A stretch of 64,000 nucleotides of DNA from an uncultured delta proteobacterium (GTDB lineage: Bacteria > Desulfobacterota > Binatia > UBA9968), in NCBI GenBank assembly GCA_963804165.1, contig CAWDPO010000041.1, positions 1 to 64,000 of the forward strand, written 5' to 3'. Shown here one piece after another: positions 779 through 63,777 of the stretch (the first letter of the stretch is position 1; the number at the start of each line of letters is the position of its first letter). A model generated the notes under the pieces. That model did not search any database and was not told the DNA's origin. It saw only the letters and a list, made by a program, of their open reading frames with translations. Made by a program: the position numbers and the translations under genes.

Positions 779-848
779 GATTGAACTGAATTCTCCATCA
801 ACTCAATCTTCTCAGCAACCAAACTGAAGCGTCGTTCAGTTCAATCTC
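779..848. repeat. ~70 bp palindromic intergenic repeat, copy 1
   Basis: GATTGAACTGAA...TTCAGTTCAATC arms; a similar sequence lies at 5018-5087. Confidence 0.7.
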
Positions 849-1234
849 AAGAAACACATTTCCAAAAAACGATGAAACCAAGTGGCGCCACCGGCAAGCG
901 TGAAAAACCCTCGTTAGCGCTAGCACGTATATTGGTAATACACTGACCAGTGTATTGTGGTTCTGTGAGAGGTGTCGTAATTGACAACTGATTGAAAGAA
1001 CGAGTAAATTCCTTTGGCCGGGATTTTAAATTATCCTATACACTGGTCAGTATACTCGGTAGTTGAACTTAAACCGCTGCGCGGTGGCGGATGCCGTAAG
1101 GCGGTTGTCTTTCTGGTTTCCCCTCCAGGTTCCCTCTTCATTTCGAACCTAGTTTTCATAGCTCGAACTCAGCGTCCATTTTTTATCTCGCGTGATAGCG
1201 TCGCTCCCAAATTTAAATCCAAGGAGGATTTGTT

Positions 1235-2079: not shown

Positions 2080-2094
2080 GAAGGCGGTCTCACG

Positions 2095-3285
2095 GTGCTG
2101 TCTCGCGCTGATGGGCGGGCGGCAGGAGAAAAAAAGGCAAGCCCCGAACTGGCCGATGTCTTTCGTCAGTACGGGGAGCGATATCAACGAACGCATCGAT
2201 TATCGGCTTCCCAGCAGAAAGTGATGCGGGCCGTTTCGGTGTGCCGGACTCCAGAATTGGGCGGGCATCTGGATCGATGCGAGTCTTGCGGTTTTGAGCG
2301 CCCGGCTTATAACTCCTGTCGTAACCGCCACTGTCCCAAGTGCCAAGCCTTGGCTAAGGCTCGGTGGTTGGAGAAGCAAACCTCGGAGCTTTTGCCGGTG
2401 GGGTACTTTCATCTGGTCTTCACCTTACCGCATGAGCTTAACGGTCTGATTCTGACCCATAAAAAGTCTGGTGTTGGCTTTGCTGTTTAAAGCTGTCAGT
2501 AAAACTTTATTGGAGTTTGGCCAGACACGTCTTAAGGGTTCCATCGGTATCACTGCTGTGCTGCACACCTGGGATCAAACCCTTAAAGATCATTTTCATC
2601 TGCACTGTCTGGTACCCGCAGGCGCTCTGTCTTTCGATCACAGCCGCTGGATACCGGCGCGCGAAAACTTTCTGTTTCCGGTTAAGGCCTTAAGCCGGGT
2701 GTTTCGTGGAAAGTTTTTGACTCTGTTCTTGCAGCAGGCCGGTGAGAGAGGAAAACTCCCTGCGGCCGAAAAGGGGGAAACCAAAGCATTGCGCCAAAAC
2801 GAGCTGGATCGTCTACGCGAAAAAGCCTTTCGGCTCGCCACAAAACTGTCCTCGATTACCTCGGCCGCTACACTCATCGTGTGGCTCTGTCCAATGACCG
2901 CATCCTCAGAAGTCGAAAACGCAGAGGTCACCTTGAGCTACCAAAAGATCCAAAAGATGGGAATCAAAAAAAGACCCTCCCTCCTTGATGCCCAGGAATT
3001 TATCCGTCGCTTCCTGCTTCATGTCCTGCCCGAGGGCTTCATGCGCATCCGCCACTTCGGCTTCTTGGCCAACCGATCCAAGAAACAAGCCCTCGCTCAA
3101 TGCCGCAAACTCTTGAAACTTGCTCCCGCTGTGCCTCAAAGCCCCATTCTCTCAGCTAAAAAACTTGCTGCTAAAAATCACCGGCATCGATCTTTCTCGC
3201 TGCCCGTCTTGTCTTGAGGGAACGATGATTGCCGTCGGCGACCTGCCGGCTTCGTTGAGTTTAGCTCGTTGGGGATTCTTCATGA
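2095..3285 (+). CDS. IS91-family (Y2/HUH) transposase, frameshifted
   Basis: Zn-binding CESCG..NSCRNRHCPKCQ, HUH motif DHFHLHC, EFIRRFLLHVLPEGFMRIRHFG. Confidence 0.9.
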
Positions 3286-3533
3286 AAAAGATTCCTTTGT
3301 ATCTCAGCTCGTGTGAATTCCCATCCACCGCCATCGCGCGGGTGTGTCTGGCAGTAGCCAAAACTAACTTTGAAGTCGCATGGCAGTGTCGCAATCGGCG
3401 CAACGCCACCGGCGCCGATCTCAATCCCGCAGTCCTCGGGCCTTTCTTTCGTTAACAGTGCGTCAAGCCCCGCGGCACTGCATCCTGGTTACAATCCCCA
3501 TAGCCGAAGTCTCCACGGCTGCTCCGCGGTTTA

Positions 3534-3628
3534 GTCCAACCTCGTTTTATCCCTTTGGCGTTACTCCGCGCTCTCCACCGAAACTTGACTGCCTCTAACC
3601 TCCAGGGATAAAACGCTATACGTTAGCT
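3534..3628 (+). other. attC-like terminal site of element copy 1
   Basis: GTCCAAC-ct-CGTTTTATCCCT...AGGGATAAAACG-ctatac-GTTAGCT. Confidence 0.65.
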
Positions 3629-3678
3629 GAACAAGGGGGACGAAGCAACCATCCTTATTGCTCTGAAAGGAGAAGCCA

Positions 3679-4848
3679 ATGGCCAATGGCAGAGCATCGA
3701 CCATGATATTGGAAGCCGCTCGCGCGCTCCGGCCGCGGATCCAGGCGGAGCGCGAGCACCTTGAGGCTGGCCGGAGGTTGCCCGAGGAACTCACCCAGGA
3801 ACTGGCCCGTGCGGGGTTCTTCCGCATCTTCTTACCTGCGGCCTATGGCGGCCTCGATCTCACTCCTATGGAGGCGATGGAGGTGTATGAAGAGCTAGCG
3901 CGAGCGGACGCCTCTGTGGCCTGGTGCGTGTGGAACGGGAACGTCCACTGGACCACTGCTCGGCTGTCGAAAGAGGTTGCACAAGAGATCTTTGCGGACC
4001 CGAACATGATCCTCGCCAACAGCACCCGCCCGACGGGACGGGCCACGGTCGTCGATGGTGGCTACCGGGTGAACGGGCGCTGGTCGCTGGTGAGCGGCTG
4101 CCAGATCAGCGCTTGGTTCATCCTCATGTGCATCATTCACGAGGACGGTAAGCCGCGACTTACGCCGTCGGGGGCGCAGGAATTGCGGTTTATGCTCTGC
4201 CCGGCCGCCGATTGCACCATCATCGATACGTGGACGGTCAGCGGACTGCGCGGCACTGGGAGTCACGATGTCGTGGTGGAGGATCGCTTCGTACCGGCCC
4301 GCTATGCGTCGTTCCACACCGACCCAATCGTGTTGACCGAGCCGCGGTACCAGATCCCTCCTCATTCGCGCGCCGGCCCCGGCCTCGGTGTGATCGCGCT
4401 CGGCATTGCGCGGAGTGCGATCGAAACACTACTCGACCTGGCGGCCGAAAAGCGTCATGAACGGACTCGCCAGTCTCTGGGGGAAGATCGGGGCGCGCAA
4501 ACTCGGCTGTCGCAGGCGGAGGCTCTGGTGCGTTCGGCACGGCTCTTTCTCTTCGACGCGGCCAATCGACTGTGGGATGACGTGCTCTCGGGACGAGAAG
4601 CGATAGTCCAGAGTCGGGCACAATTGCGGTTGGCGAGCTGGCATGCGGTAACGAGCGCCGTCCAGGCAGTCGACCTCATTTATCTCACAGGTGGTGCGAC
4701 CTCGCTCTACGCAACCTGCTCGATTGAGCGCGCTTTTCGGGACGTGCATGCCGTCACCCAGCATATAGGCGTCCAGCCCCGCGTCCTGGAGACCGTCGGC
4801 CGGGTGTTGTTCGGACTGGAGCCGGACATCCCGACATTTATGCTGTAA
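3679..4848 (+). CDS. Acyl-CoA dehydrogenase-fold flavin-dependent hydroxylase (cassette gene)
   Basis: RRLPEEL..LARAGFFR, GGYRVNGRWSLVSG, DTWTVSGLRGTGSHD, IERAFRDVHA. Confidence 0.85.
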   Translation: MANGRASTMILEAARALRPRIQAEREHLEAGRRLPEELTQELARAGFFRIFLPAAYGGLDLTPMEAMEVYEELARADASVAWCVWNGNVHWTTARLSKEVAQEIFADPNMILANSTRPTGRATVVDGGYRVNGRWSLVSGCQISAWFILMCIIHEDGKPRLTPSGAQELRFMLCPAADCTIIDTWTVSGLRGTGSHDVVVEDRFVPARYASFHTDPIVLTEPRYQIPPHSRAGPGLGVIALGIARSAIETLLDLAAEKRHERTRQSLGEDRGAQTRLSQAEALVRSARLFLFDAANRLWDDVLSGREAIVQSRAQLRLASWHAVTSAVQAVDLIYLTGGATSLYATCSIERAFRDVHAVTQHIGVQPRVLETVGRVLFGLEPDIPTFML

Positions 4849-4913
4849 TGTCCGGCATGCGCTGTCGCACGATTTGGTTATGCTCCTCTTTGCTCCGCAC
4901 GGACGAGAAGACC

Positions 4914-5013
4914 AGCTAACCAACGCCGTGCACGAGCCCGGCGCCCGCTGGCGGTTCCCGCTGAACGTGAAGGTTACGGTTTGGGTGGCGGCCCGTGACG
5001 GCGAACGTTAGCG
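4914..5013 (+). other. Integron attC site
   Basis: AGCTAAC caa CGCCGT[G]CACG...CGTGACGGCG aac GTTAGCG, with an extrahelical base; CAGCTAAC complements GTTAGCTG at 3622. Confidence 0.8.
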
Positions 5014-5017
5014 CTGT

Positions 5018-5087
5018 GATTGAACTGAATTCTCCATCTAATCAATCTCGCGCTAGATCAAACTGAAGCATCGTTCAGCTCAATCTC
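5018..5087. repeat. ~70 bp palindromic intergenic repeat, copy 2
   Basis: GATTGAACTGAATTCTCCATC...AAACTGAAGC.TCGTTCAG.TCAATCTC, as at 779-848. Confidence 0.7.
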
Positions 5088-5194
5088 AGGGCTAAACTTG
5101 GTCTCCCACTCGATGAACGTCTGTTCGTCATAAATCTCACTTTTCTCTACTACCGCTCATGCCGCCGTGATACATACCGAATGGTGTGTGTGCA

Positions 5195-5831
5195 ATGAAG
5201 AAAGCTCGTGTCTTATCAATCCTGCTATGCGCCATGCTCTTTGCGCTTTGCGGTTCAGTCGAAGCGCAGCAGGCAGGAAAAATCTTTCGCATAGGTTACC
5301 TGGAGAGTGGCACCGCTTCCGGTAGCGCGGTCCTCTTGGAGGCGTTCCGCCACGAGCTGAGTAAGCTCGGCTGGATCGAGGAAAAAAATATAGCTTTCGA
5401 GTACCGGTTTGCGGAGCAAAAGTCTGAGCGCCTACCTGAGCTTGCGGCGGACTTGGTTCGTCTTAAGGTTGATCTGATCGTGGTATCAGGGACGCCATCT
5501 TCGTTAGCGGCGAAGAAAGCGACTACTACCATTCCCATCGTGATGGCGAGTGGCGGAGACCCCGTAGGAGCAGGTCTGGTTGCTAGTCTGGCGCGGCCGG
5601 GAGGCAATGTCACGGGTTTGTCAAGTTTAGGTGAGCTAAATACCAAAAGGCTAGAAATACTGAAGGACGCAGTTCCCAAGCTCGGCCGAGTTGGACTTCT
5701 GCGGCTGTCGGGAGGGGGTATAGCAGACGAGCTCCAATTGAAAGATCTGAGGCCTGCGACTCTGGCACTGAAGCTAAAATTGGAAGAGATCGAAACTCAA
5801 CCCGACGCCAAAGGTTTAGAGAGCGCCTTTC
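5195..5831 (+). pseudogene. ABC substrate-binding protein, 3'-truncated
   Basis: Signal peptide, AQQAGKIFRIGYL and LAADLVRLKVDLIV; homology stops after GLESAF, where it meets the antisense integrase fragment. Confidence 0.8.
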
Positions 5832-6035
5832 ACGTTTTTCGCGAGCCGCTTTTAAGCTCACGTCAGGATAGACACCAAACGAAAGACGGTTTTCCTTGCC
5901 GCCAAAACGATATTTCCAACGCCACCACTTCCCACCGGCAGGATTAACTTCCAGATAAAGTCCTCCGCCGTCGAACAACTTGAAGGGTTTAGTGCGGGGC
6001 TTCGCAGAGCGAATAGCGGTATCTGTTAGCGGCAT
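5832..6035 (-). pseudogene. P4-type integrase, arm-binding N-terminus only
   Basis: MPLTDTAIRSAKPRTKPFKLFDGGGLYLEVNPAGGKWWRWKYRFGGKENRLSFGVYPDVSLKAAREKR; catalytic domain absent; lies just downstream of tRNA-Glu. Confidence 0.85.
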
Positions 6036-6201
6036 GTGGGGGGCAACTCACTTTCTACGCTCCTCTGTTGCCCCCATAGCTGCCCCGCATATTGGGCCGC
6101 TTTAGATGGACGACAGCGGAACATGCCGGACACTATATACTATAAGATTAATAACTTACAGTGGGTGAATGGACTTTATCGGATGGTTCGGGACTTCATT
6201 G

Positions 6202-6276
6202 TGGTGGTCCCAACGGGAATCGAACCCGTGTTCCCGACGTGAGAGGCCGGTGTCCTAACCGCTAGACGATGGGACC
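6202..6276 (-). tRNA. tRNA-Glu (CTC)
   Basis: GGTCCCATCGTCTAGCGGTTAGGACACCGGCCT-CTC-ACGTCGG...GGTTCGATTCCCGTTGGGACCACCA. Confidence 0.95.
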
Positions 6277-6277
6277 T

Positions 6278-6353
6278 TGGCTGAGGAGGAAGGACTCGAA
6301 CCTTCAATCGCCTGATCCAGAGTCAGGTGGCTTACCAATTAGCCGACTCCTCA
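6278..6353 (-). tRNA. tRNA-Gln (CTG)
   Basis: TGAGGAGTCGGCTAATTGGTAAGCCACCTGACT-CTG-GATCAGG...GGTTCGAGTCCTTCCTCCTCAGCCA. Confidence 0.95.
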
Positions 6354-6380
6354 AAGTCGCGAGTGATAAAATTAAAAGAA

Positions 6381-7817
6381 TTAGCTGGGCGAGTCAAGTT
6401 GCTGGATGTATTCCAATGCCTTTCTGCAGCCGGTCGAATCGTGCGCTCTTTGCCGAGTACGGCGATGACATCGTGAATTCCGGGACTCACGGTGGCGCCG
6501 GTTAAAGCGACGCGCACCGGTTGAGCGAGTTTGCCCATCTGTATGCCGTTTTCTTAGAGCGTGGCGTGAAAGCTTGTTCGATAGCCGCCTCGATGAAATC
6601 CTCGAGCGCGGCGAGTTTCTCGATCAAGCTCTCAATCGGCGCGGCGGCGTCTCTTGGTCAAAAACTTCTTCGCCGCCTTTTCGTCGAGAAGCGATTTCAT
6701 CGGACAGATAATAATGCGCCGCATCGACCAATTCGGTTAGCGTTTTTGCGCGTTCTTGCAGCGTCGCGAGCATTTTTTCCAGCCATTTCTTGTCCTGCGG
6801 CACGGGATAACCTTTGGCTTCTGAATATAGGGCACGATCTCATCGGCCAATTGGGCGAGCGGCCGGGATTTTAAATAATGAAAATTGACCCACAAGAAAC
6901 TTTTCCGGATTGAAAACTCCGGCGGATTTGCCGACGTTTTCAAGGGTAAATTTCTCGATCAATTCTTCGCGCGAGAAGATCTCCTGGTCGCCGTAGGACC
7001 AGGCTAGACGAACCAAATAGTTCACCACCGCTTCGGGAAAATATCCCATGTCGCGGTAAGCGGTGACGGAGGTCGCGCCATGGCGTTTGCTCAGCCGCGC
7101 TTTGTCGGTGCCGAGGATGAGCGGCACATGGGCAAACTGCGGCAGCTCATGCCCAAGCGCTTGGTAAAGCTGGATCTGCCGCGGCGTGTTGCTTAAATGG
7201 TCGTCGCCACGAATGATATGAGTAATCTCCATGTCGATATCGTCGACGACGACGCAAAAATTATACGTCGGCGTGCCGTCCGAGCGGGCGATGATGAGAT
7301 CGTCCAATTCGCGATTGTCGAAAACGACATCGCCCTTGATCAAGTCGCGGACTACGGTCGAGCCCTCGGCCGGTGAGCGGAACCGAACGACATAGGATTT
7401 GTCAGCCGGCAGCGACGGGATCACGCCTTCGGGCGGACGACACGTGCCGTCGTAGGCGGGTTTGCGTTTCTCTTTCTGTGCCAACTGTCGCTTGGCATCC
7501 AATTCCGCTGGTGTGCAGGTACAGGGATAGGCTTTGCCCTTTGCTAATAGCTCATGGATCTTGTCTTTATAGAGCGGATAGCGTTCGGTTTGATAGAACG
7601 GACCTTCATCATAATCGAGCTCGAGCCATTTCATGGCGTCCAAAATGGCTTGAATCGCCTCCGGCGTGGATCTCTCGCGATCCGTATCTTCGATGCGCAG
7701 TATAAGTTTGCCGCCGTAATGGCGAGCGAAGAGGTAATTAAACAGTGCCGTGCGCGCGCCGCCGATATGCAGATAGCCGGTCGGGCTTGGCGCGAAACGA
7801 GTGCGGACTTGGGCCAT
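6381..7817 (-). CDS. gltX: Glutamate--tRNA ligase, C-terminal frameshifts
   Basis: [37 protein letters not shown]; [13 protein letters not shown] in another frame. Confidence 0.95.
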
Positions 7818-7915
7818 GCCGTAAGCTAACAGGCAGGCAAAAAGGCGTCAACGGCGCGTTAAAAATCTGTTTTGATTATGGTATTATCCAGTCATTCACT
7901 GAGGAGAATGGGCCG

Positions 7916-9653
7916 TTGGAAACAAAAACAAATGAAGGGGGCAGAGGAGCGACGGCGGGTGCGGCTGATACCGCGCCGTCTCATTTTATTCGAAATATCG
8001 TTGCGGAAGATCTCAAGCACGGCAAAAATCAAGGAAGGGTACACACTCGATTTCCGCCGGAACCGAACGGCTATCTTCATATTGGCCATGCCAAATCGAT
8101 TTGTCTCAACTTTGGATTGGCCGCCGAGTTCGGCGGACTATGCAATCTTCGTTTTGACGATACCAACCCGAGCAAGGAAGACGTCGAATACGTCGATTCG
8201 ATCAAAGAAGACGTTCGCTGGCTCGGTTTTGATTGGGACGATCGGGAATTTTACGCATCAGATTACTTCGAGCAGCTCTACCAATTTGCGATTCAACTTA
8301 TAAAAGCCGGTAAAGCTTTCGTTTGCGATTTGACCGCGGATCAGATGCGCGAATATCGGGGAACGCTGACAGAACCCGGCAAGAACAGCCCCTATCGCGA
8401 TCGCTCAGTGGAAGAAAACCTCGATCTGTTTCAGCGCATGCGCGCGGGCGAATTTGCCGACGGGAGCCGGACGTTACGCGCGAAAATCGACATGGCGTCA
8501 CCGAACATCAATATGCGCGACCCGGTCATGTACCGAGTCTTGCGCGCGACGCATCATCGCACCGGCGACAAATGGTGCATTTATCCGACGTATGATTTCG
8601 CCCATGGTCAGTCGGATTCGATAGAGGGGATCACTCATTCGATCTGCACGTTGGAGTTCGAAGATCACCGTCCGCTCTACGACTGGTTTCTCGATCAGCT
8701 CGGTATTCATCACCCACAACAAATCGAGTTCGCCCGCTTGAACTTTACCCACACGGTCTTGAGCAAGCGCAAACTGCTTCAACTGGTTCAGCAGGGACAT
8801 GTCACGGGTTGGGATGATCCGCGGATGCCAACGTTGGCTGGTTTCCGTCGCCGCGGCTACACCCCGGAAGCGATTCGCAATTTCTGCGAGCGCATCGGTG
8901 TGGCGAAAAGAAATAGTGTCGTGGATATCGCCATGCTCGAGCACTCTCTGCGTGAAGATCTCAACAAGCGGGCGCCGCGAGTCATGGCGGTGCTGCGGCC
9001 GATCAAAGTCGTGCTGGAAAATTATCCCGAGGGGCAGGTTGAGGAATTAGAAGCGGTTAACAATCCCGAAGATCCGAGCAAGGGGACGCGTAAAGTTCCC
9101 TTCTCGCGCGAGCTTTACATCGAGCACGATGATTTCCGTGAAGAGCCGCCAAAAGGTTTTTTCCGCTTGTCTCCCGGCAAGGAAGTTCGCCTGCGCTACG
9201 CGTACATCATCAAATGTATGGAGGTCGTGAAGGACCCGGAAACTGGTGAGATGACAGAATTGCGCTGCACTTATGACCCAGAGACCAAAAGTGGCTCATC
9301 GCAGAGCAAACGCAAAGTTAAATCGACGATTCATTGGGTCTCTGCCGCGACACGCGGTCTACCGGCCGAAGTAAGACTCTACGATCATTTATTTAGAAGA
9401 GAGGACCCGGACGACTTCCCGAAGGAAGCGATTGGTTGGCTAATATCAATTCGAAATCATTGGAAAGTTTGACATCATGTCGGGTCGAGCCTTATCTCGC
9501 GAACGCTAAACCCGGCGAACGATTTCAGTTTGAGCGGCTCGGCTATTTTTGCGTCGATGGCAAGGATTCGTCAGGTGCGAGCCAATCTTCAACCGTTCCG
9601 TTACTTTGCGGGATACGTGGGCGAAAATGGAGAAGGAGCGGAAAAAGAGCTGA
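7916..9653 (+). CDS. glnS: Glutamine--tRNA ligase, C-terminal frameshifts
   Basis: [57 protein letters not shown]. Confidence 0.95.
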
Positions 9654-12440: not shown

Positions 12441-13928
12441 ATGAATGAGTGTAGCGAAATGGAAGCACCCGTTCTCAGCACTGAAGCGATCACCCGGATG
12501 ATTGGATGCAAGCCGACGGTGCCCCTTACTCCACAAGAGATGGCATGCTCGCTCAGAGTCGCATTTTATCCGGCTGTTAATACCAACGAAACGTTGGAAA
12601 AGTTTCTAGACACACTTAGGCTTATACTTATACGAGCCGGGGTTAACGTCATTGGCTACGATGAAGCGCTTAATGAAGGCCAAAACGGTTGTATAGGAAA
12701 GGGAATCGTTCTAATCGCTCCAGGAGAGGGCGAGCCGGGAAATCTTGCAATTGATCACGTAGCCAGCCTCACTGAGAACACTGTCGTTGGCGTTTATTGC
12801 GGTGCGATGCCTGGAATGGGACAGAATAGATTCCAAAAACGAGTCGACTCCTTAGTAAGCGCGCTAGTCTGGCACATGGTGCAAGTCATAATTTACGTGG
12901 ACGATGAATCGTGGACAATCTGTACTATGAATGGCGGAATTGATACCTATGCTCTAGAGAAACTGGAGGCCAGAGTCCTTGATTCCTTGGTTCCGAAGCT
13001 CGCGGCTCCAGTGGTACCGCCACAAGCGACTGACTTCGCCATTCGCAAAGACGCGTTCGATCCATCCATACCCGATTATCAGACAAGCGTTCGTGACTTG
13101 GTTGCCGGGTCAGTCATCTGGGGGGAGTCGGGCCTTCTGGCTTCTCAAACGAGGCTTGACGAACTTACTTATCGCAATCTTAAATATAAGCGAATCGCAG
13201 CCGCATATCTTAGCTCTCGAACGGGAATGAGTTACGGGTTTCTTTCCCGCCAGCTTCCACTGACTGTAACGCCCGCTGTCGAGCTAGATTATGCTCACCA
13301 GATGTTGCGACGAATAGACTGGGAGCAAAAAGACTTCATTGAGATTGACGATCAAATGCTCGTAGCTGCAAAATTAGGGCACAAACGATTCGTTTTGAGA
13401 ATCCCGGAAGTAACAGTTCTGTGCACCCGCTCGGGTTGTGATAAAGCGAGACTCAATCTGTCGAAAGACCTTGTGACTCTTACGCTCTCAAAAGGTCGTA
13501 TTATTTTGGGTTTGGCCAAAGGACTTCCGGACGGAAGTGACTGCCAACCATCATTTGACACGTTGATTATTCTTGCGCATGCGGTCGGCAACGCTATTCT
13601 TGCCAGTATCCTGGCTACGATCAAACCAGGTTCGAAGTTTTATTTGGCGCTAACGCACCACGGTCTTGCGATTACTCATTGGCATGGATTCGTAGAGGCT
13701 ACGACGTTGCCGGAGGGTTACTATATGCACGGTAATAGCAATCCTCCAGTATCGTGTTCTACACCCCAAGCTGCGATATTTGGATTGATGGGGAAGCTTG
13801 CGGCTTTGCAACAGAGTATTGCAGACGGAAAGGAATATATGGGCGATGCGCATATTGAGCCAAGCCATGGAACCAATATGTGCGGTGGATCGATAACGGA
13901 CCTGGTTAGATTGGCTACTGGAATATAG
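12441..13928 (+). CDS. Hypothetical protein, possible C-terminal class II aldolase-like domain
   Basis: 495 aa ORF; spacing of TRSGCDK..L..DLV, PSFDT, THWHG and PSHGT resembles class II aldolase motifs (judged by eye). Confidence 0.55.
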   Translation: MNECSEMEAPVLSTEAITRMIGCKPTVPLTPQEMACSLRVAFYPAVNTNETLEKFLDTLRLILIRAGVNVIGYDEALNEGQNGCIGKGIVLIAPGEGEPGNLAIDHVASLTENTVVGVYCGAMPGMGQNRFQKRVDSLVSALVWHMVQVIIYVDDESWTICTMNGGIDTYALEKLEARVLDSLVPKLAAPVVPPQATDFAIRKDAFDPSIPDYQTSVRDLVAGSVIWGESGLLASQTRLDELTYRNLKYKRIAAAYLSSRTGMSYGFLSRQLPLTVTPAVELDYAHQMLRRIDWEQKDFIEIDDQMLVAAKLGHKRFVLRIPEVTVLCTRSGCDKARLNLSKDLVTLTLSKGRIILGLAKGLPDGSDCQPSFDTLIILAHAVGNAILASILATIKPGSKFYLALTHHGLAITHWHGFVEATTLPEGYYMHGNSNPPVSCSTPQAAIFGLMGKLAALQQSIADGKEYMGDAHIEPSHGTNMCGGSITDLVRLATGI

Positions 13929-35335: not shown

Positions 35336-37651
35336 CTAGGCGGCGCTCTTTTTCTTGCTCTTTTGCAGCGCCCAAAAAACGTTTTCGGGCTTGAGCGGCA
35401 GGTCGTAAACGCGCACTCCAATGGCATCGGCGACCGCATTGCCGATGGCAGCGGGTGTCGGCGCGAGTCCGGGTTCGCCGAGACCTTTGGCCCCGTACGG
35501 TCCTTCGGGCTCGGCGCACTCGACGATGATCGGGATCATCTTCGGCACGTCCAATGATGTAACCAGGTGATAATCGAGGAACGAGGGGTTGCGCACCTTG
35601 CCGGTGTTGTCGATGATCATTTCCTCGTGCAGCGCGGAACCGATGCCCATGGCGACGCCACCTTCGATCTGCGCGACGCAATTGAGCGGGTTGATCGCCT
35701 TGCCGACATCATGGGCCGCGGACATGCGTAGCAAGCGTACCCGGCCGCTTTCTTCATCGACCATCACTTCGGCGGCCTGCGTGGCGTACATATAAAACGC
35801 CGAGGCGTGATCGCTGTGGCCGGTCTCCAGATCCAAGTCCTTGCCGATCTCATAGGTGTAGGATGCGTCGCCGCGCACGATGCCATTGATGCCGAGTTTT
35901 CGCTTTACAACTTCGCCGATGGGCAGCGCCTGCTGCGGCTGGTCTTTGAGAAATACTTTACCTTCGGCGTAATCGAGGTCTTGCGCCTTGGCTTCGAGCA
36001 TCGGGCTTGCCGCTTCCATGATCTGCTCGCGCGCATGAATCGCCGCGCGGCGCACGGCGTTGCCCATATGATAGGTGCTGCGGCTCGAGGTGGTGGAAGC
36101 GTCGTAGGGTATGACATCGGTGTCGAGCTGGTGCATGTGGACCTTGTCCATCGGCACCTTGAGCTCTTCTGCAGCGACTTGGGAGAGAATGGTGTTGCAA
36201 CCCTGGCCGATCTCCACGGTTCCGGCGAGCACGGTCACTTCTCCTTGCGCGTTGACGGTGACGCCGGCGTTGGAAGTGGTCGGTGAGCGGGTCGGCTTCT
36301 GGATGCAGGCGAAGCCTTTGCCGATTTTCACTCCCGGCTTGGTTGGCTGCGCCGGCTTGCCCCAGTCGATCGCTTCCGTCGCCTTGACGAGCGTTTCTTT
36401 GAGCCCCACGGCGTGAAGCTGCTCGCCCCAGTAAGAGATATCGCCCTCGACGAAGATATTCTTCATGCGAATGTCGAGCGCATCCATGCCGAGCTTTTTG
36501 GCGATCTCGTCCAACTGCTGTTCGCCGGCCCATGCGCCCTGCGGAATACCGTAGCCGCGATAGGAACCGGCGACGGGTTTGTTGGTGTAAACGGCATAGC
36601 CATCGACTTTGACATGTGGAATGCGATACGGCCCCGGCGCCGGCAGGCTGCCGCGGATGCAAACCGTCGGGCTTTTTTCGGCGTAGGCGCCGGCGCCCCA
36701 GTAAATCGTCATCTCGCGCGCTACCAAGGTGCCGTCTTTTTTCACGCCGGTTTTTGAGTAGACCACCGCCTCGTGGCGGGTCAAGGTTGAGATGAAAGTT
36801 TCCTCGCGGTTGAACTTTACGCGCACGGGCCGGCCGTTGGTATGGAAAGCCAGCGCGACCGCGATCGGTTCGACTTTCAAGCCGCCTTTGGAGCCGAAGC
36901 CGCCGCCCTGCGCCGGATTGATGAAGCGAATCTTATCCTTGGTCATGTTCAAGGCTTCGGTGATCTCATGCAGCGCGCGAAACGGCGCGTCGTTGGCGAC
37001 CCAAAGCGTCAAGCGGCCGCTCTCCTTGTCCCATTGAGCATGGGCCGAGTGCGGTTCCATGGCGGCGTGCTGAATCATCGGCACGAAATATTTTTCTTCG
37101 AGAACGAGGTCGGATTCTTTGAAGCCTTTCGAGACATCGCCGGTACGTAGCTTGAAATGCTCGGCGATGTTGGCGTGCGGTCCCGGCACGATGAAATCGA
37201 CTTTGCGATATTTGGGAAAATCCTCGTGAATCGCGATCGCCCCCGGTTTAGCGGCTTCCTCCGGGTCGGTGTAGACTGGCAGATCTTCGTACTCGACTTC
37301 GATGAGCTTCACCGCTGCTTGCGCGATATCTTCATCTTCCGCCGCTACCGCCGCTACGGGTTCTCCGATATAGCGCACTTTGCCTTGAGCGAGAAAAGGT
37401 TTGTCTTTAATCGATTCGCCGTGCGTCCAAGGCGCGTCTTCGCCGGTCACCACAGCGACGACGCCGGGCAACTGCTTGGCTTTCTCCGTGTTGATTTTTT
37501 TGATCTTGGCATGGGCCTTGGTGCTAAATAGCGTCTTGCCATAGAGCATATTGGGCAACACGAGGTCATAGCCATAGACAATTTGCCCGGTAACTTTCTC
37601 GTTGGCATCGACCCGGGTGACTGGTTTTCCGACGACTGTGAGTTCGGACAT
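35336..37651 (-). CDS. Xanthine dehydrogenase-family molybdopterin-binding subunit
   Basis: GGGFGSKG, SYRGYG, EIGQG, QIEGG, GAKGLGEP. Confidence 0.93.
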   Translation of the reverse strand: MSELTVVGKPVTRVDANEKVTGQIVYGYDLVLPNMLYGKTLFSTKAHAKIKKINTEKAKQLPGVVAVVTGEDAPWTHGESIKDKPFLAQGKVRYIGEPVAAVAAEDEDIAQAAVKLIEVEYEDLPVYTDPEEAAKPGAIAIHEDFPKYRKVDFIVPGPHANIAEHFKLRTGDVSKGFKESDLVLEEKYFVPMIQHAAMEPHSAHAQWDKESGRLTLWVANDAPFRALHEITEALNMTKDKIRFINPAQGGGFGSKGGLKVEPIAVALAFHTNGRPVRVKFNREETFISTLTRHEAVVYSKTGVKKDGTLVAREMTIYWGAGAYAEKSPTVCIRGSLPAPGPYRIPHVKVDGYAVYTNKPVAGSYRGYGIPQGAWAGEQQLDEIAKKLGMDALDIRMKNIFVEGDISYWGEQLHAVGLKETLVKATEAIDWGKPAQPTKPGVKIGKGFACIQKPTRSPTTSNAGVTVNAQGEVTVLAGTVEIGQGCNTILSQVAAEELKVPMDKVHMHQLDTDVIPYDASTTSSRSTYHMGNAVRRAAIHAREQIMEAASPMLEAKAQDLDYAEGKVFLKDQPQQALPIGEVVKRKLGINGIVRGDASYTYEIGKDLDLETGHSDHASAFYMYATQAAEVMVDEESGRVRLLRMSAAHDVGKAINPLNCVAQIEGGVAMGIGSALHEEMIIDNTGKVRNPSFLDYHLVTSLDVPKMIPIIVECAEPEGPYGAKGLGEPGLAPTPAAIGNAVADAIGVRVYDLPLKPENVFWALQKSKKKSAA

Positions 37652-56868: not shown

Positions 56869-57657
56869 ATGATCGAGCTTTATCACAACGATATGTCGGT
56901 TTGCGCGCAGAAGGTGCGATTCGCCTTGGCGGAAAAGAAGCTTTCCTGGGAGGGGCACCATCTAAATCTTCGCGCCGGCGATCAGCAGAAGCCGGAATAT
57001 TTAAAACTTAATCCCAACGCGGTGGTGCCGACTTTGGTGGACGATGGGAACGTTATTATCGAGTCTACGGTGATCTGCGAATATCTCGACGATACCTATC
57101 CTGAGCCAAAGCTTAAACCCGCCGATGCGCTGGGGCGGGCGCGCATGCGCTTATGGACCAAGCAGCTCGACGAAGGCGTGCACGCGGCAACCAGCGTCGT
57201 CAGCTCGGCCATCGCGTTTCGCTATCAGAAGCTCGCTATCGGCATGGAAGCGCTCGAAGAGTTTCACGAGAAGATGCCCGACCCGGTGAAGCGGGAAAAA
57301 AGCTGGGAGAATGTCACCAAGGGCGTCGAATCGCGTTTCTTTCCCGAGGCGATCAAGCGCTTCGACAGGCTGCTCGCGGACATGGAAGTGTCGTTGACAG
57401 ACTCGCCGTGGCTTGCCGGCCGGGAATTTTCCCTCGCGGATATTGGCTACGCTCCGTACATCACTCGGCTCGATCATCTGCAGTTGCAGTTTCTCTGGGA
57501 CAAGCGGCCCCATATCCCCGATTGGTACGACCGCTTGCGTGAACGCCGTGCTTACAACGAGGCGCTGGAAAAATGGTTCAACGCGAATTACCTGCCGCTA
57601 ATGAAAGAAAAGGGTCTCGAAGTTCGCGACAAAATCAAAGCGATTGTGGCGGGATAA
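56869..57657 (+). CDS. Glutathione S-transferase family protein
   Basis: SVCAQKVR, LNPNAVVPTL, IESTVICEYLD, FSLADI. Confidence 0.92.
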   Translation: MIELYHNDMSVCAQKVRFALAEKKLSWEGHHLNLRAGDQQKPEYLKLNPNAVVPTLVDDGNVIIESTVICEYLDDTYPEPKLKPADALGRARMRLWTKQLDEGVHAATSVVSSAIAFRYQKLAIGMEALEEFHEKMPDPVKREKSWENVTKGVESRFFPEAIKRFDRLLADMEVSLTDSPWLAGREFSLADIGYAPYITRLDHLQLQFLWDKRPHIPDWYDRLRERRAYNEALEKWFNANYLPLMKEKGLEVRDKIKAIVAG

Positions 57658-57914
57658 CTCTGTCTGATTCCCGAGAGGTGAAATACGGAAAGCGCCAATT
57701 TGGACGCTTTGGGCAGAGTTCGTGCGATGGCGCGAGCGCAGTGGATGCTCTAACTCTGTCCTCAACAAACCGCAATACTCTCCATTGCCCACCCTCAGCG
57801 TCCGTTTTGCCAGCGTCATCAACTGCAACACTCGCCACGCCGGTCAGAATCAAATATTTGCGCGGCCTGGTCAAATACGGCGGTTGGTTTCCTGGTGCGG
57901 AAAAGCGAAGCGGC

Positions 57915-57977
57915 GGCTAACGTTTCGTTAACGCGCGCGCCGTTCGCGGCGCGTCGGTGTTGAACGCTGGGTTGGGC
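57915..57977 (-). other. Integron attC site (63 bp)
   Basis: GCCCAAC ccagc GTT[C]AAC..cgcgccg cgaa cggcgcg..GTTAAC gaaac GTTAGCC; canonical box spacing and extrahelical base. Confidence 0.88.
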
Positions 57978-57986
57978 GTCATTGTG

Positions 57987-58439
57987 TCAGCGGGCTACGG
58001 CCGCCTCAGCAATACCTGCCAGCGCCTTGCGTAAGTTCCCGATGACGGCGCACTGCGTAACCCCATGGCGTTGCCCCAGGAATTCGGGATCGTTGTAGCC
58101 GAGCCAAACTTGGGACGATGCGTCCTCCCACACCAGGGCCTTGAGCGGAAGATCGATTCCCACAGTCTGCGCGCACTCCATGAAGGGCGTGCCGCCTTGC
58201 GGGTTGCCAAAGATGATGACCTCGGTTGGCCGCAGAGTCATGCCGACTTTTGCTGCACCCGCCGCGTGATCGATCCGCGCAAACACGTTCAGCCCACGTT
58301 GTTTGACCAGATCCTCGAGCCGGTTCATCGTGTCCTTAGCACTGTGGGGGCTCTTCACGACGAGCAAGCCATCTGCGGCGCTAGCAAGCGAACTGGCGGC
58401 CAAGCAGGCAACGATTGCAAGGGAGCGAAGCGCATTCAC
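57987..58439 (-). CDS. DUF302-family exported protein (cassette gene)
   Basis: AAAGGAG RBS + GTG; VFARIDHAAGA, IFGNPQGGTP, GIDLPLKALVWED. Confidence 0.88.
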   Translation of the reverse strand: MNALRSLAIVACLAASSLASAADGLLVVKSPHSAKDTMNRLEDLVKQRGLNVFARIDHAAGAAKVGMTLRPTEVIIFGNPQGGTPFMECAQTVGIDLPLKALVWEDASSQVWLGYNDPEFLGQRHGVTQCAVIGNLRKALAGIAEAAVAR

Positions 58440-58478
58440 GGGTAAACTCCTTTCGCGTGAGAAGAAGGAGATGAAGAC

Positions 58479-58572
58479 GCCCAACGTATAGCGTTTTATC
58501 CCCTAAAGGTTGGCGGCAATCAAGTTGCTTGATGGCGCTGGAGTATCGCTAAGGGGAAAAAACGTGTTGGAC
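58479..58572 (-). other. attC-like terminal site of element copy 2
   Basis: GTCCAAC-a-CGTTTTTTCCCCT...AGGGGATAAAACG-ctatac-GTTGGGC. Confidence 0.65.
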
Positions 58573-58816
58573 TAAACCGCGGAGCCGCTGAGCAGCTGCG
58601 GCTATGGGGATTGTAACCTGACGCAGTGCGGCTGAGCAGGGCACCGCGTTAGCGATAGTACGGCCAGTGGATGATGGTTGAGATCAGCGCCGGTGGTTTT
58701 TCGCCGATTGCGACACTGCCATGCAACTTCAGAGGCGGTTTTGGGCAGAGCCAAACGCACCCGCGCTAAGTCGGCAGATTGAGAGTCACACCAGCTGAGA
58801 GGCGATGGAGCCTTGC

Positions 58817-59992
58817 TCATGAAGAATCCACACGAGGCGAGATCGAGAACGCCGGTAGGTCGCCGACGACAATCATCCTTCCCTCACCGCAGCACGGGCA
58901 GCGAGAAAGATCGACGCCTGTGATTTTAAGCAGCAGGTCTTTGGCTGAGAGCAAGGGAGGTTGCGGCAAAGCGGGATCGAGATCGAGGAGTTTGCGGCAC
59001 TGAGCGAGCGCTAGTTTTTTGGCGCGGTTAGCCAACAAGCCGAAGTGACGGATGCGCATGAAGCCTTGCGGCAAGACGTGAAGCAAAAAGCGGCGGATAA
59101 ATTCCTGGGCCTCCAGCGTCATGGTCTTTTTGCGATCCCCGTCTCTTCGATCTCGATAACTCAAGGTGACTTCTCCGTCTTGGATCTGGAGAATACGATT
59201 GTTGGACAGCGCCACGCGGTGGGTGTAGCGGCCGAGGTAGTCAAGCACCGTGTGGGGCGAGCCGAAAGGCTTTTTGGTATAGACCCCCCAGTTCTTTTGG
59301 CGTAACTCGTTGATGGCTTCGCTTGGGAAATCGATTTTTCCTCGCACGATGTTGTGTTGTAACAGATCGAGAAACTTTGCTCGGAAAACCAAGCTTAAAG
59401 CTTTAACCGGAAACAGAAAGTTTTTGCGCGCCGAGATCCAGCGATTTTGATCGAAAGACAGAGCACCGGCGGGGACAAGACAGTGCAGATGAAAATGATC
59501 CTTGAGGGTTTGGTCCCAGGTGTGCAGCACGGCAATGATACCGATGGTTCCCTTAAGACGTGTCTGGCCAAACTCCAACAAGGTTTTACTGACAGCTTTA
59601 AACAGAAGACCCAGTACGATCTTCTTGTTGGCAAGGATCAGCCGGTTCAGTTCATGGGGTAAGGTAAAGACCAAATGAAAATATCCCACCGGCAAAAGCT
59701 CAGAGGTTTGCTTCTCCAACCACCGAGCCTTAGCCAAGGCTTGGCACTTGGGACAGTGGCGGTTACGGCAGGAGTTATAAGCCGGACGCTCAAAGCCGCA
59801 AGACTCGCATCGATCCAGATGCCCGCCCAACTCTTGGGTGCGGCAGGCCGAAACGGCCCGCACCACCTTTTGCTCGCAGGCCAATAAACGATGCGTTCGT
59901 TGGTAGCTCTCCCCGTACTGACGAAAAACATCGGCCAGCTCGGGACGCGCCCTTTTTTCTCCTGCCGCCAGCCCAGGGCTGGCCGGCAGCAT
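58817..59992 (-). CDS. IS91-family (Y2/HUH) transposase
   Basis: NSCRNRHCPKCQ, DHFHLHC, YLGRY, RIRHFGLL. Confidence 0.93.
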   Translation of the reverse strand: MLPASPGLAAGEKRARPELADVFRQYGESYQRTHRLLACEQKVVRAVSACRTQELGGHLDRCESCGFERPAYNSCRNRHCPKCQALAKARWLEKQTSELLPVGYFHLVFTLPHELNRLILANKKIVLGLLFKAVSKTLLEFGQTRLKGTIGIIAVLHTWDQTLKDHFHLHCLVPAGALSFDQNRWISARKNFLFPVKALSLVFRAKFLDLLQHNIVRGKIDFPSEAINELRQKNWGVYTKKPFGSPHTVLDYLGRYTHRVALSNNRILQIQDGEVTLSYRDRRDGDRKKTMTLEAQEFIRRFLLHVLPQGFMRIRHFGLLANRAKKLALAQCRKLLDLDPALPQPPLLSAKDLLLKITGVDLSRCPCCGEGRMIVVGDLPAFSISPRVDSS

Positions 59993-60004
59993 GTGGCTAC
60001 CTGG

Positions 60005-60853
60005 CTACAGCGAGTCGTTGCGCGGATCGAGCAAGTCCAACGGACTCGTGGTCGAGCCCAGCTTGGGCTGGCGGATTTGCAGATAGCGCTGGGTACTCTG
60101 AAGCGAGTTATGACCCAACAGCGTCTTAATAGTCACCAGATCCACTCCCGCTTCTAACAGGTGGGTGGCGAAACAGTGACGCAGCGTGTGAATCCCTTTG
60201 CCTTTTTCAATGCCGCTTTTGTGCTTGGCGAGATTGTAGACTTTCTGCGCGGCGGTGATGTGCAGGGGATCATTTCTGGTTTTACCAAAGAAGACCCACA
60301 GCACGGGTTGATAGGCCTGCTTATATTTTCTCAGCTCGCCAAGCAGCCGTTGGGAGAGAATCGTGTAGCGGTCTTTTTTCCCTTTGCCCTGTTCCACTCG
60401 GATCATCATACGCTCGGGATGAATGTCGCTGAGTTTGAGGTGGATTAGCTCAGTGACCCGAAGTCCCGCCGCATAAGCGGTCATCAGTAAACAGCGGTCT
60501 CTGAGCTTGACCGCGGCGCAAAGCAATCGCTCGACTTCCCTGGGGCTCAACACCTCGGGCAACCGCCACGTCCGTTTTCTCGGCGGCAAGAACAGCTGCT
60601 CTTCGTTCCAGCCCAAAACTTGCTGATAGAAAAACCGTAGCCCCGAGATCGCCACGTTCTGGGAATTGGCGGATAAGCCTCGTTTCTGGAGATGCAACAG
60701 ATAGGCGCGGATCTCGTCTTGCGTCAGTTGATCCGGGAATCGATGATAGTACCTGGCCAGCCCCACCATCGCCGCAACGTAGGACTTCTGCGTCCTCGAT
60801 GCGAAATTTCTCAGCTTCATCTCCTCGATCATCTTGTCGCGTAATACTCCCAT
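60005..60853 (-). CDS. Tyrosine recombinase
   Basis: [41 protein letters not shown]. Confidence 0.95.
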   Translation of the reverse strand: MGVLRDKMIEEMKLRNFASRTQKSYVAAMVGLARYYHRFPDQLTQDEIRAYLLHLQKRGLSANSQNVAISGLRFFYQQVLGWNEEQLFLPPRKRTWRLPEVLSPREVERLLCAAVKLRDRCLLMTAYAAGLRVTELIHLKLSDIHPERMMIRVEQGKGKKDRYTILSQRLLGELRKYKQAYQPVLWVFFGKTRNDPLHITAAQKVYNLAKHKSGIEKGKGIHTLRHCFATHLLEAGVDLVTIKTLLGHNSLQSTQRYLQIRQPKLGSTTSPLDLLDPRNDSL

Positions 60854-61323
60854 AAAAAACCCTCCTTGGATTTAAATTTGGGAGCGACGCTATCACGCGA
60901 ACTGAGAAAACCGGGAGTGGAATTGAACTGTGAAACCTAACGCAGATTTCGAAAGCAGTCTAAAGCAGAAAACTCCGCACGGCATCCCCACCCGCGCAGC
61001 GGTTTAGTTCAACTATTAAGTGAGCTGCCGTAGGCCGCGACAATTACTGGTCGGCTTATCCTCGGCGACGGCTTCGACAACAAAAGTCCAAATTGCCTAC
61101 AATATCCATCAGCTACCGAGTCATGTCAACTCAGCGTTTCCGACAAAAGCCGACCGACGCGGCGGGTTATCTCCCTCTCGATCGGCGGCTTATGCCAGCT
61201 AAAGTTCAGGTGCATCCGTCGGTCCCGCTTGCATGTGCCATTGCGCCTGGATCTCGCCTGCACGGTTTCTCTTGCTCCGCGTCCCGTTTCCGCAGTAGAG
61301 ATTAAAGGAGAAGGGGCCGGACT

Positions 61324-62493
61324 ATGAAATTCTCAATCTTCATGATGCCGCTGCATTATCCGACGGAAAATCCGTCGCTGGCGTTCGATCGTGACATCGC
61401 GCTGATCCGCTATGCAGATGAGCTCGGTTTCGATGAGTTCTTTATCGGCGAGCATCACTCCGGCGGGTGGGAAACCATGCCCGTGCCGGAAATGGCGCTA
61501 GCCAAAGCATCCGCGCACGCCCACCGCATTCGTCTCGGCACGTCGGTTATCAGCGTGCCGTTTCATCATCCCTTCCACGTCGCGGAGCGCATGGCTTTTC
61601 TCGATCACCTTACGCGCGGTCGCGCGATCCTGGGCGTGGGGCCTTGTGCGCTGGTGACCGACAAGAATTTGTTCGCTCTTGCCACTGAAAAGCTTTACCC
61701 GATGATGGCTGAGTCGGTGGAGATCATCGTGCGTTTGCTGGAATCACCCGAGCCGATCGATTACGACGGCAAGTTCTGGAAATTTAAACAAATGCGGCTG
61801 CAACTTCGCTCTTATCAGCAGCCGCGCATGCCGCTCGCGATCGCCTCGTCAGGAAATCCGATCAGTCTCGAGCTGGCCGGCAAGCACGGCATGATGTTTC
61901 TGTCGCCGGCAGGGAAAAACAAGCGCAACAATCAAACCAAGGCGGAACAGTGGAATGCCGTCGAAGCGATCGCTGCCAAGCACGGCACACAAACTTCACG
62001 CGATAACTGGCGTATCGCCACCTGCGTTTATCTCGCCGAGAGCCGGGAAGAGGCGTGGCGCGACGTCGAAGCGAGCATCGACCGCGATAAGCACTACTTC
62101 TTTTCAATCGGATTGAAAGCACCCTACGAAGCCTATCCCGGGCAACCTGCGCATGAAATCACGGCCCGCTCAGGCGCCGACCGGCGCGACTGGATCATTG
62201 GCACCCCGGACGATGCGATCGCGCAAATCGAACGCATGCAGGCCGAAACCGGCGGCTTCGGCGGACTCATGGTCACCACGCACGAGTGGGCGAGCACGGA
62301 AAAGCTGCGTCGTTCCTACGAGCTTTTCGCGCGCTACGTCATGCCGCATTTTCGCGGTCACACTCAAGGTTACAGAGACGAATGGCGGCGGATTCAGCAG
62401 GCCGCGGCCAACGGCGGATTCCAATCCGACGCCCCGGCCAACCGAGTAATCTCGTATTGCACGATGCGGCAAAGGCGGAAAGATAACGGATGA
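61324..62493 (+). CDS. Luciferase-like (LLM) flavin-dependent monooxygenase (C-terminus probably frameshifted)
   Basis: ADELGFDEFFIGEHH, RIRLGTSV, LDHLTRGR, IIGTPDD, ELFARYVMP. Confidence 0.9.
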   Translation: MKFSIFMMPLHYPTENPSLAFDRDIALIRYADELGFDEFFIGEHHSGGWETMPVPEMALAKASAHAHRIRLGTSVISVPFHHPFHVAERMAFLDHLTRGRAILGVGPCALVTDKNLFALATEKLYPMMAESVEIIVRLLESPEPIDYDGKFWKFKQMRLQLRSYQQPRMPLAIASSGNPISLELAGKHGMMFLSPAGKNKRNNQTKAEQWNAVEAIAAKHGTQTSRDNWRIATCVYLAESREEAWRDVEASIDRDKHYFFSIGLKAPYEAYPGQPAHEITARSGADRRDWIIGTPDDAIAQIERMQAETGGFGGLMVTTHEWASTEKLRRSYELFARYVMPHFRGHTQGYRDEWRRIQQAAANGGFQSDAPANRVISYCTMRQRRKDNG

Positions 62494-62576: not shown

Positions 62577-63777
62577 GTGCCGCTCGCAGTTCCATTCTGG
62601 ACACAGGCGACGCATCAAGAAATTTTTCGCGCCATTCGCTCAGGAAACGTCATCGACGGCGCGGCGCTCGGCAAGCTCCGGACGTTGATCGGTAAAACAC
62701 TCAAGGTTGAGAACACCCTGCTTTGTGGCTCCGGCAGCCTGGCTTTGGAACTCGCGTTGCGCGCCTGCGGCGTGCAGCACGGCGACGAAGTCGTGCATGC
62801 CGGATTTTTGTTGCAGCGCGGTTGTGCCGCCGATCCTTGCGGTAGGAGCGACTCCGGTGCTCACCGACGTTGGCGATGAACTCAATCTCACCGTCGAAAC
62901 CATCGAAACCGTGCTCACGAGTAAAACCACCGCGATCATCATGCCGCATCTATTCGGCAATCCCGCGGACATGGGAGAGATCGTCGAATTGGCACAGAGC
63001 AGGAATATTCGCGTCATCGACGACGCAGCGCAAGCGCTCGGCGCGACGATTGACGGCCGACCGGCGGGCAGCTTCGGCGATGCAGGAATTGTGAGTTTTG
63101 GTAATGAAAAGATTTGCTCCGGCATTGGCGGTGGCGCAGTTGTTTCTCGTGACAAAAGAGTTTTGGCGGGAGGGCTGCACTTAAAATTGGCGCCTCCTTC
63201 TTGTTTGCTCCCGCTTCGACGATTGTTATCGACTTTGCTCTGGCATCGCTGGCGGCGTTGGACGGCGCCGCTGCGACAAATTGGCTCGCGCTGGCGCGGC
63301 ACAGATCCCGGAACGGTGCTTGAGCCGTACCGAAGGGAGTCGATGGCGAACCTCAGCGCGGCGGTTGCCGCGACTTTGATGGAGACACTGGGTGAAAACA
63401 TCGCGGCGCGCCGCGCTCGCGTTCAGCGCCTATCAAAGACTGCTCGGCGGCGAGGAGCGGTTAGCAGTCATCGCGCACCGGACCGGCTCGGCGTGTCTGG
63501 CGCAAGTGGTTCGGGTGTCTGCGGAGAAGACGTGGTCGAGGATTTCGCTTCGAGGCGGTCAAATCGCTTGCGCTCGGCGACGCCGGATATGAAGTGCAAG
63601 GCAGCTACGTGCCGATCCATTTACTCGGCAATTTCCGCGGATGTGTCTGGGATCAACTTCCGTATTCGGAGCGAGTTTGGTCGGATTTGGTCGAGCTGCC
63701 TTGCGAGCCTGGCGTGAGTCTCGATGACGTCGAGCAGGATCGCCGCCATCGTCAAAAAGGTTGCCCGTGGATGGTAG
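62577..63777 (+). CDS. DegT/DnrJ/EryC1/StrS PLP aminotransferase, several frameshifts; ends approximate
   Basis: GSGSLALELAL, PHLFGNPAD, IDDAAQALG, SFGNEK. Confidence 0.82.

Follow-up and report, generated by a model that had tools for sequence, protein, structure and literature searches.

A 64,000-nt stretch of contig CAWDPO010000041.1 from an uncultured Binatia bacterium (the window, to which all positions refer) holds two copies of an insertion sequence (IS) of the IS91 family, each directly followed by a gene cassette of the integron type. We focus on element copy 2 (58486-61012) and the adjoining cassette for a DUF302 protein (57915-58485), both read on the minus strand. We consider it likely, at a probability of roughly 75%, that this site is a decayed integron without an integrase, in which DUF302 is the one cassette left and a cassette-like IS91-family element bearing its own recombinase gene (IS91/Int) occupies the crossover between attI and the first cassette. 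Members of this IS family have a cassette-like anatomy and lie recurrently in an integron context.

The interval 57915-58485 is an ordinary promoterless integron gene cassette ending in its own attC. Its 5' boundary, GTTGGGCGTC at 58485-58476 (minus strand), lies directly after the end of copy 2 at 58486, and the crossover G|TT falls at 58485/58484. The open reading frame (ORF; 57987-58439, minus strand, 150 aa) starts with a GTG at 58439 preceded by GAAAGGAG, stops with a TGA at 57989-57987 and matches PF03625 (DUF302) in Pfam with an E-value of 2.8e-22. The N terminus of the protein resembles a signal peptide (judged by eye, no predictor run), and the protein is apparently exported. Nine bases past the stop, the R'' box GCCCAAC (57977-57971) opens a 63-bp attC (57915-57977, minus strand) that closes with the R' box GTTAGCC (57921-57915); the R'' box is of the type RYYYAAC, and R' differs from GTTRRRY at one position. 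The sequence GACGCCCAAC (57980-57971) is the exact reverse complement of the cassette start GTTGGGCGTC at 10/10 positions, for which the expected count of a given 10-mer in the 600 nt downstream is, by our own arithmetic, about 6e-4. When the bottom strand (the plus strand of the window) is folded, GGCTAAC pairs with GTTGGGC and CGTTAAC with GTT-G-AACG, producing an L-box stem (CGTT-C-AAC / GTTAACG) with one extrahelical G and an asymmetric spacer of 4/5 nt. As the fold energy alone was not significant (z = -1.24; 21/200 shuffles folded equally well), the case for this attC is one of box architecture, not of stability. The attC, its distance from the stop codon and the 10/10 complement had been described in a first-pass annotation of this DNA, and all three held on re-reading.

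A scan for a stem plus R boxes across the whole window and both strands returned three places only: the attC at 57915-57977, a second attC at 4914-5013 beside element copy 1, and the right end of copy 2. A looser scanner for R and L boxes was noisy and missed attCs at a related locus (L002), and stem-based scanning with reading by eye was used instead; attC calls beyond the window likewise come from our own scans and reading by eye. Candidates of the looser scan at 63345-63427, 36509-36587, 4068-4122 and 57823-57965 were rejected as false positives, mostly within coding sequence. A search of the window against Rfam returned two tRNAs only and no attC match.

GC content and homologue taxonomy are suggestive, and no more than suggestive, of a foreign origin for the content of the cassette. 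Its GC content is 0.61, compared to 0.51-0.58 nearby. Of the 7986 homologues of the DUF302 protein, the closest is 95% identical, and almost all of the best 120 listed (76-95%) are 150 aa long; organism-named relatives among these 120 belong to Burkholderiales or Pseudomonadota metagenome-assembled genomes at 77-81% identity. The sole organism-named homologue among those listed for the transposase of the element is from Candidatus Binatia, as is the related locus L001.

Genes and cassette-like ends of the IS91/Int element

Copy 2 (about 2.5 kb, minus strand) encodes two proteins. The Y2 (HUH) transposase (58817-59992, minus strand, 391 aa) is intact, with matches to PF04986 (2.5e-57) and PF14319 (9.1e-32), and scores 445.6 bits against the IS91 model NF033538 (curated cut-off 125 bits), which places it in the IS91 family, N-terminal zinc-binding domain included. 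It has more than 8000 homologues, of which the best 120 are at least 80% identical and mostly lie on 2-4-kb contigs. The second gene (60005-60853, minus strand) encodes an IntI-like or Xer-like tyrosine recombinase of 282 aa (PF00589, PF13495). Against the integron integrase model TIGR02249 it scores 159.1 bits, below the curated cut-off of 265, and matches in two stretches. Aligned with the true IntI of locus L073, it shows gaps of 31 and 10 aa where the IntI-specific helical segment lies; the closest solved structure is of the XerA type (4A8E), with IntI4 (2A3V) second and again matched in two stretches. Judged from its sequence, then, the recombinase of the element is not an integron integrase. 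For comparison we used 78 related loci (designated L001 and so on) at 44-80% transposase identity, recovered in one scan of genome contigs. The recombinase gene lies directly upstream of the transposase gene on the same strand in 66/67 sources with at least 900 nt upstream (window copy 1 left out), the exception being L003.

The right end of copy 2 (58486-58572, minus strand) is an attC-like hairpin. It begins with the box GTCCAAC, followed by a stem CGTTTT(T)TCCCC/GGGGATAAAACG, the spacer CTATAC and the flank GTT; the terminal sequence up to 58486 reads GATAAAACGCTATAC / GGGGATAAAACGCTATAC. The boxes around the hairpin (58479-58572) are GTCCAAC...GTTGGGC, with the crossover G|TT at the 3' box. 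None of 200 shuffles folded equally well (z = -3.55), and the corresponding hairpin of L028 reached z = -7.75. At the left end (61007-61012, minus strand), TTGAAC is followed by TAAACCGCTGCGCGG, which together complement the segment that ends in the R''-like box of the right end.

The same plan recurs across the family. A left end of the form TTGAAC(T/G)AAACCGC was mapped in 40 sources, preceded by G in 27, A in 9, T in 3 and C in 1, and copies within one genome diverge exactly at TTGAAC (L015/L016, L057/L059 and the first and second copies of L028). About 15 nt at the start of the element are complementary to the GTYCAAC box, plus its extension, at the base of the right hairpin. The right end consists of this GTYCAAC box, placed after the segment complementary to the left end, then 0-4 nt, the stem, 4-9 nt that often resemble CTATAC, and GTT. 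The stems vary by locus while their arms stay complementary (GTTTTATCC/GGATAAAAC, GATTGTATCC/GGATACAATC, GAACCTATCCGG/CCGGATAGGTTC). We mapped this architecture in 29/80 sources, 25 of which had the R''-like box GTYCAAC. Among sources with at least 500 nt past the transposase gene it was found in 27/60, compared to 25/240 control windows and 24/300 shuffles.

The hairpin is followed by 6-8 nt, after which the element ends at the G of G|TT or just ahead of it, and head-to-tail copies are joined through a single base: CGCTAAAC-G-TTGAAC in L028, CCTATAC-A-TTGAAC in L009 and TTTTTC-A-TTGAAC in L057. The element unit therefore has the geometry of a cassette, since it starts with TT, its start complements the box of its terminal hairpin, and it ends at the base preceding TT.

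Three further observations concern the ends. The last 23 bp of the right end of L001 (TTAGGGATAAAACGCTATACGTT) are tandemly duplicated at 2631-2676, which looks like an empty mini-unit made at the crossover. A hairpin in the left flank is striking in L007, L015, L028 and L037; it was rejected as a feature of the element, as the fold energy of 36 flanks was no lower than that of 1057 control windows (Mann-Whitney p = 0.28). By eye, the left flank of L039 (~4780-4818) resembles a tRNA T-arm on the opposite strand (GGGGGACTCGAACCCCC).

Integron context in the window and at related loci

Upstream of copy 2, an attI-like leader (61031-61193, minus strand) matches positions 4808-4971 of L002 (blastn, 72% over 167 nt, E = 4e-16), which at that locus lie between the stop of intI and the element. 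A promoter-like site, TTGACA-17-GATATT/GATAGT, is common to the leader of copy 2 (61129-61101) and L002.

Of the 26 loci whose left end was mapped and whose upstream sequence reaches at least 1500 nt, 5 had an intI gene or remnant to the left of the element (L008, L073, L028, L002 and L004); none was found in the other 21. The most direct case is L008, where a true IntI gene (1894-2967, minus strand; TIGR02249 449.1 bits) is followed by units starting GTTAGAC. Here the element is flanked on its left by a canonical attC (GGTCTAAC ... GGCGATCTAGCGG / CCGCTAATCGCC ... CAGACG|TTGAAC) with an extrahelical base in its fold, and the right flank, G|TTAGACC, is an 8/8 complement of the R'' box of that left flank. 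The L008 element has thus split an attC exactly at the G|TT crossover. A split attC of this kind, with a left-flank box complementary to the right flank, was sought in the 21 sources with both ends mapped and was found in L008 only.

At L073, a gene for a true full-length IntI (2592-3722, 424.7 bits) is oriented like the cassettes, and small ORFs separate it from the element downstream. In L028, a divergent intI (871-1755, minus strand; 375.4 bits, covering positions 1-266 of 315 in TIGR02249) precedes an attI region of ~450 bp, behind which two element copies lie head to tail (2199-9119), the second with a nested ISKra4-family transposase gene (6018-7385). L002 and L004 retain only 3' parts of intI: at L002, 4629-4784 best matches the last 41 positions of TIGR02249, and at L004, 4615-4736 is frameshifted. 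Both intI 3' ends lie ~200 bp upstream of the left end of the element and in the same orientation. Element orientation equalled cassette orientation in 7/7 integron-linked cases, and in four of them (window copy 2, L002, L004 and L028) the element was the first unit after the leader or attI.

We inspected the DNA past the right end in detail at nine loci (L001, L002, L004, L008, L015, L016, L028, L033 and L073). An attC-bounded cassette followed the element at L002 and probably at L004, and the elements of L008 and L073 lie inside arrays. At L002 the right side holds a 104-aa ORF and a toxin-antitoxin pair of the BrnT/BrnA type, closed by a firm attC (8560-8659, z = -2.5); because a second candidate at 7858-7947 folds weakly (z = -1.4), we counted this locus with one firm attC, not two. 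At L004 a single ORF comes first; after it are the reverse transcriptase gene of a group II intron, encoded on the other strand, and further small ORFs, with an attC at 12855-12955. By eye, no attC-bounded cassette followed the right end at L033, L015 and L016, and L001 ends too soon.

Within the window, the arrangement at copy 2 has a counterpart at element copy 1 (1063-3623, plus strand), which is 73-88% identical to copy 2 in matched segments and has both genes broken into short ORFs. The junction CGCTATAC|GTTAGCTG at 3623/3624 joins it to a cassette (3624-5013, plus strand) with an ORF (3679-4848) for an acyl-CoA-dehydrogenase-like / flavin-monooxygenase-like protein and a 100-bp attC (4914-5013, AGCTAAC...GTTAGCG), in which CAGCTAAC complements the cassette start at 8/8 positions. 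We can therefore agree with the first-pass annotation that copy 1 also adjoins an unrelated single-gene cassette and that both copies meet their cassette at the same nucleotide. The link between element and cassette is also real beyond the window, as it replicates at L002, L004, L008, L028 and L073. The further view that the elements carry the cassettes is not favoured, given the integron parts to the left of the element, the split attC of L008 and the absence of a cassette at L033, L015 and L016. The shared junction nucleotide is explained by the universal cassette boundary G|TT, which is common to anything inserted by, or aimed at, the crossover, and the integron parts on the left make element and cassette co-residents of an integron array.

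The composite of copy 1 (850-5019) is bracketed by a 69-bp direct repeat (781-849, plus strand, and 5020-5088) that encloses leader, IS and cassette. Each repeat begins with TTGAACTGAA and ends with TTCAGTTCAA, an inverted pair, and there are no further copies in the window; the start TTGAACTGAA has the same sequence as the left end of the L028-type element. Possible readings of the repeat are a miniature derivative, an attachment site or the trace of an insertion of the whole composite in one piece. The sequence GTTAGCGCT is present at both 913 and 5007. Genes for PF04392 ABC-transporter substrate-binding proteins flank the composite at 1-770 and 5186-5947, the upstream one looking frameshifted by eye, and two adjacent tRNA genes (6205-6353, minus strand; Rfam 64 and 63.8 bits) lie ~1.2 kb past the cassette of copy 1.

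The composite of copy 2 lies between a GST gene (56869-57657) and a gene for a luciferase-like monooxygenase (61324-62493). No direct repeats of at least 10 nt were found around it, and L002 and L004 gave scattered 10-mers only. Just past the DUF302 attC, at 57881-57895 (minus strand), is a 14/15-nt match to TTTTCCGCACC(A/G)GG, which also occurs at ~8155-8170 of L004, where it borders a group II intron (reverse transcriptase 8214-9365, opposite strand). The match in the window may be an intron remnant.

Mechanism and alternative explanations

If the site of copy 2 is a decayed integron, an attI-type leader would survive at ~61013-61193 and intI would have been lost. A circular form of the element may recombine through its attC-like end with attI or an attC, as cassettes do, by means of its own recombinase, the resident IntI or both. 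The element would thereby become the first 'cassette' of the array and displace DUF302 to second place, where read-through from the IS might express it. Such cassette-like recombination of a circular intermediate is favoured by the position of the element first after the leader or attI in four cases and within arrays in L008 and L073, by its fixed orientation and by the one-base tandem joins; we propose it tentatively, at slightly less than even odds.

Several observations weigh against a decayed integron with a cassette-like element, or against this route to it. The 64-kb window lacks intI altogether, and the site of copy 2 has a single attC, so that the reading of an integron remnant depends on a leader match to a single locus. 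L004 convincingly shares just the last ~20 nt of that leader, the leader of copy 1 (850-1057) has no homologue in any locus by blastn, and a promoter scan of the copy-2 leader gave one 10/12 match, with a number of sites not above that of shuffles. Given that ~10% of controls pass, a few of the right ends among the 29 are probably false, with L064 and L066 as apparent examples. In the hairpin of the element, 0-4 nt separate the stem from the R'' box and 4-9 nt separate it from the R' box; the two attCs in the window are asymmetric in the other direction, and with its long unpaired spacer on the opposite side the hairpin is not a canonical attC. The G|TT rule is not absolute either, because the tandem junctions at L009 (2781) and L057 (7505) join through A and the flank at L059, in the same genome as L057, is GTC. 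No empty site or element-less allele was seen among the related loci, which were recovered by their transposase match. The recombinase lacks an insertion that IntI reportedly needs for DNA recognition (accessible text of bioRxiv 10.1101/542381).

A Y2 mechanism by itself could yield the same junctions, as canonical IS91 also ends with CCTATCGAT beside a 4-nt target and forms tandems. Under this alternative, the element would be a plain rolling-circle IS91 whose transposase nicks by the right-end hairpin (oriIS) and inserts beside a short GTTR, with a preference for integrons; the R' boxes (GTTRRRY) would fit the target by chance, the likeness to cassettes would be convergent and the recombinase would serve, for example, in multimer resolution. 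The Y2 transposase is indeed intact and conserved, and no intI was found in 21/26 loci. Canonical copies on three plasmids continue from CCTATCGAT into GAAC (L080), CAAG (L081) or the next copy, analogous to GCTATAC|GTTG and |GTTA here, where the flank is neither GAAC nor CAAG. One-ended transposition would also explain intI remnants of 0, ~150 and ~120-180 bp (window, L002 and L004). However, a 4-nt target cannot account for 5/26 loci beside intI, and this alternative leaves unexplained both the exact G|TT hit in the attC of L008 and the fact that the left end so strongly complements the R''-like box. We regard plain IS91 transposition as a credible contender with the odds against it. In side observations on the canonical elements, the tandem in L079 (E. 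coli plasmid NZ_CP027444.1) is joined head to tail as CCTATCGAT|CGAGTAGGC, and the left end of canonical IS91 there resembles its own GAAC/CAAG target, as GTTGAAC resembles the GTT flank here.

Alternatively, the element could act as a 'mini-integron' whose IntI-like recombinase captured both cassettes of the window at a landing site at the right end, with the cargo travelling along. In both window copies, L002 and L004, cassettes do join the right end at one and the same base, the modules stand at non-syntenic places, the 69-bp repeats bracket the copy-1 composite as if it had been inserted whole, and the recombinase falls into an 'Integron-like' subgroup in the accessible text of its classification (bioRxiv 10.1101/542381). 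Yet intI, attI or the 5' half of an attC stands to the left of the element in five loci, and together with the split array attC of L008 this implies that the arrays existed before the element arrived. L033, L015 and L016 lack an attC-bounded cassette (L001 ends too soon), and the recombinase is without the IntI insertion, so that capture by the element seems improbable. That DUF302 and its flanks are ordinary chromosome, with an 'attC' that is a chance palindrome or terminator beside which the element landed, would suit the non-significant fold energy (z = -1.24), the lack of intI in the window and the abundance of DUF302 proteins, but we give it very little credence in view of the 10/10 complement, the R and L boxes, the extrahelical G and the attC position 9 nt past the stop, the same architecture at copy 1 with an unrelated gene, and the integron context of related loci.

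Relation to known mobile elements and significance

The DUF302 cassette itself is ordinary, and the relation between element and integron extends a known phenomenon. Like other integron cassettes, it has one promoterless ORF, an attC with R''/L''/L'/R' boxes and an extrahelical G, the G|TT crossover and a start that complements the inverse core. Unlike integron arrays, the window has no intI and a single cassette per site, and an IS occupies the position next to the leader. The element in turn resembles IS91 and ISCR elements in a transposase that scores above the NCBIfam cut-off, CTAT(A/C)C near the right end, a short conserved flank and head-to-tail tandems. It differs from them in the additional IntI-like recombinase gene, a right-end hairpin framed by boxes of the RYYYAAC/GTTRRRY type and recurrent insertion at integron sites.

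IS1111-attC elements use a DEDD transposase, and the IS91-like ISShvi3 carries a recombinase gene. According to the accessible text of a 2022 survey (PMC9229058), IS91-family ISs lie in the variable regions of three Shewanella integrons, including ISShvi3 within an array, and the recombination sites of integrons are homing targets of IS1111-attC elements and group IIC-attC introns. The ends of ISShvi3, a G|TT junction and a recombinase are not described in that part of the account (PMC9229058). IS1111-attC elements and group IIC-attC introns interrupt attC, the introns by means of a reverse transcriptase, whereas the element studied here occupies the boundary of a cassette and is oriented as cassettes are. 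In the accessible text of bioRxiv 10.1101/542381, recombinases borne on IS91 elements share one 'Integron-like' subgroup with IntI, of which they are the closest homologues, without its insertion. Rolling-circle transposition of IS91 and ISCR elements can be one-ended and mobilises DNA next to the terminating end (accessible text of PMC7923331). Our literature search found no description of IS91/Int ends, of their G|TT junction or of a recurrent position beside intI.

It is a speculative and rather unlikely idea that IS91/Int elements are self-mobilising 'cassettes', hybrids between rolling-circle transposons and integron cassettes. The Y2 transposase would then make a single-stranded circle whose joined ends fold into an attC-like structure, and the recombinase of the element or a resident IntI would integrate this circle at the G|TT of attI or attC. 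One-ended events would spread modules of leader, IS and cassette, with longer or shorter intI stubs attached, to new places in the chromosome as integrase-less mini-integrons, which would account for the non-syntenic modules in the window, L002 and L004. If so, such elements would be a living link between HUH transposons and the origin of the integrase/attC system.

For annotation, elements of this kind explain isolated single cassettes that integron finders would miss. IS91/Int elements have cassette-like ends, lie exactly at the attI/attC crossover in at least six independent loci and can take the first 'cassette' position in an array. They offer a testable system of two enzymes and one hairpin for the interaction between single-strand-processing transposons and integrons and for the mobility of integrase-less modules. 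Among gene-capture systems, integrons are the chief one behind multi-resistance, and the recombinases of these IS91-type elements, reportedly the nearest relatives of IntI, may bear on how the integrase and the folded attC sites originated.

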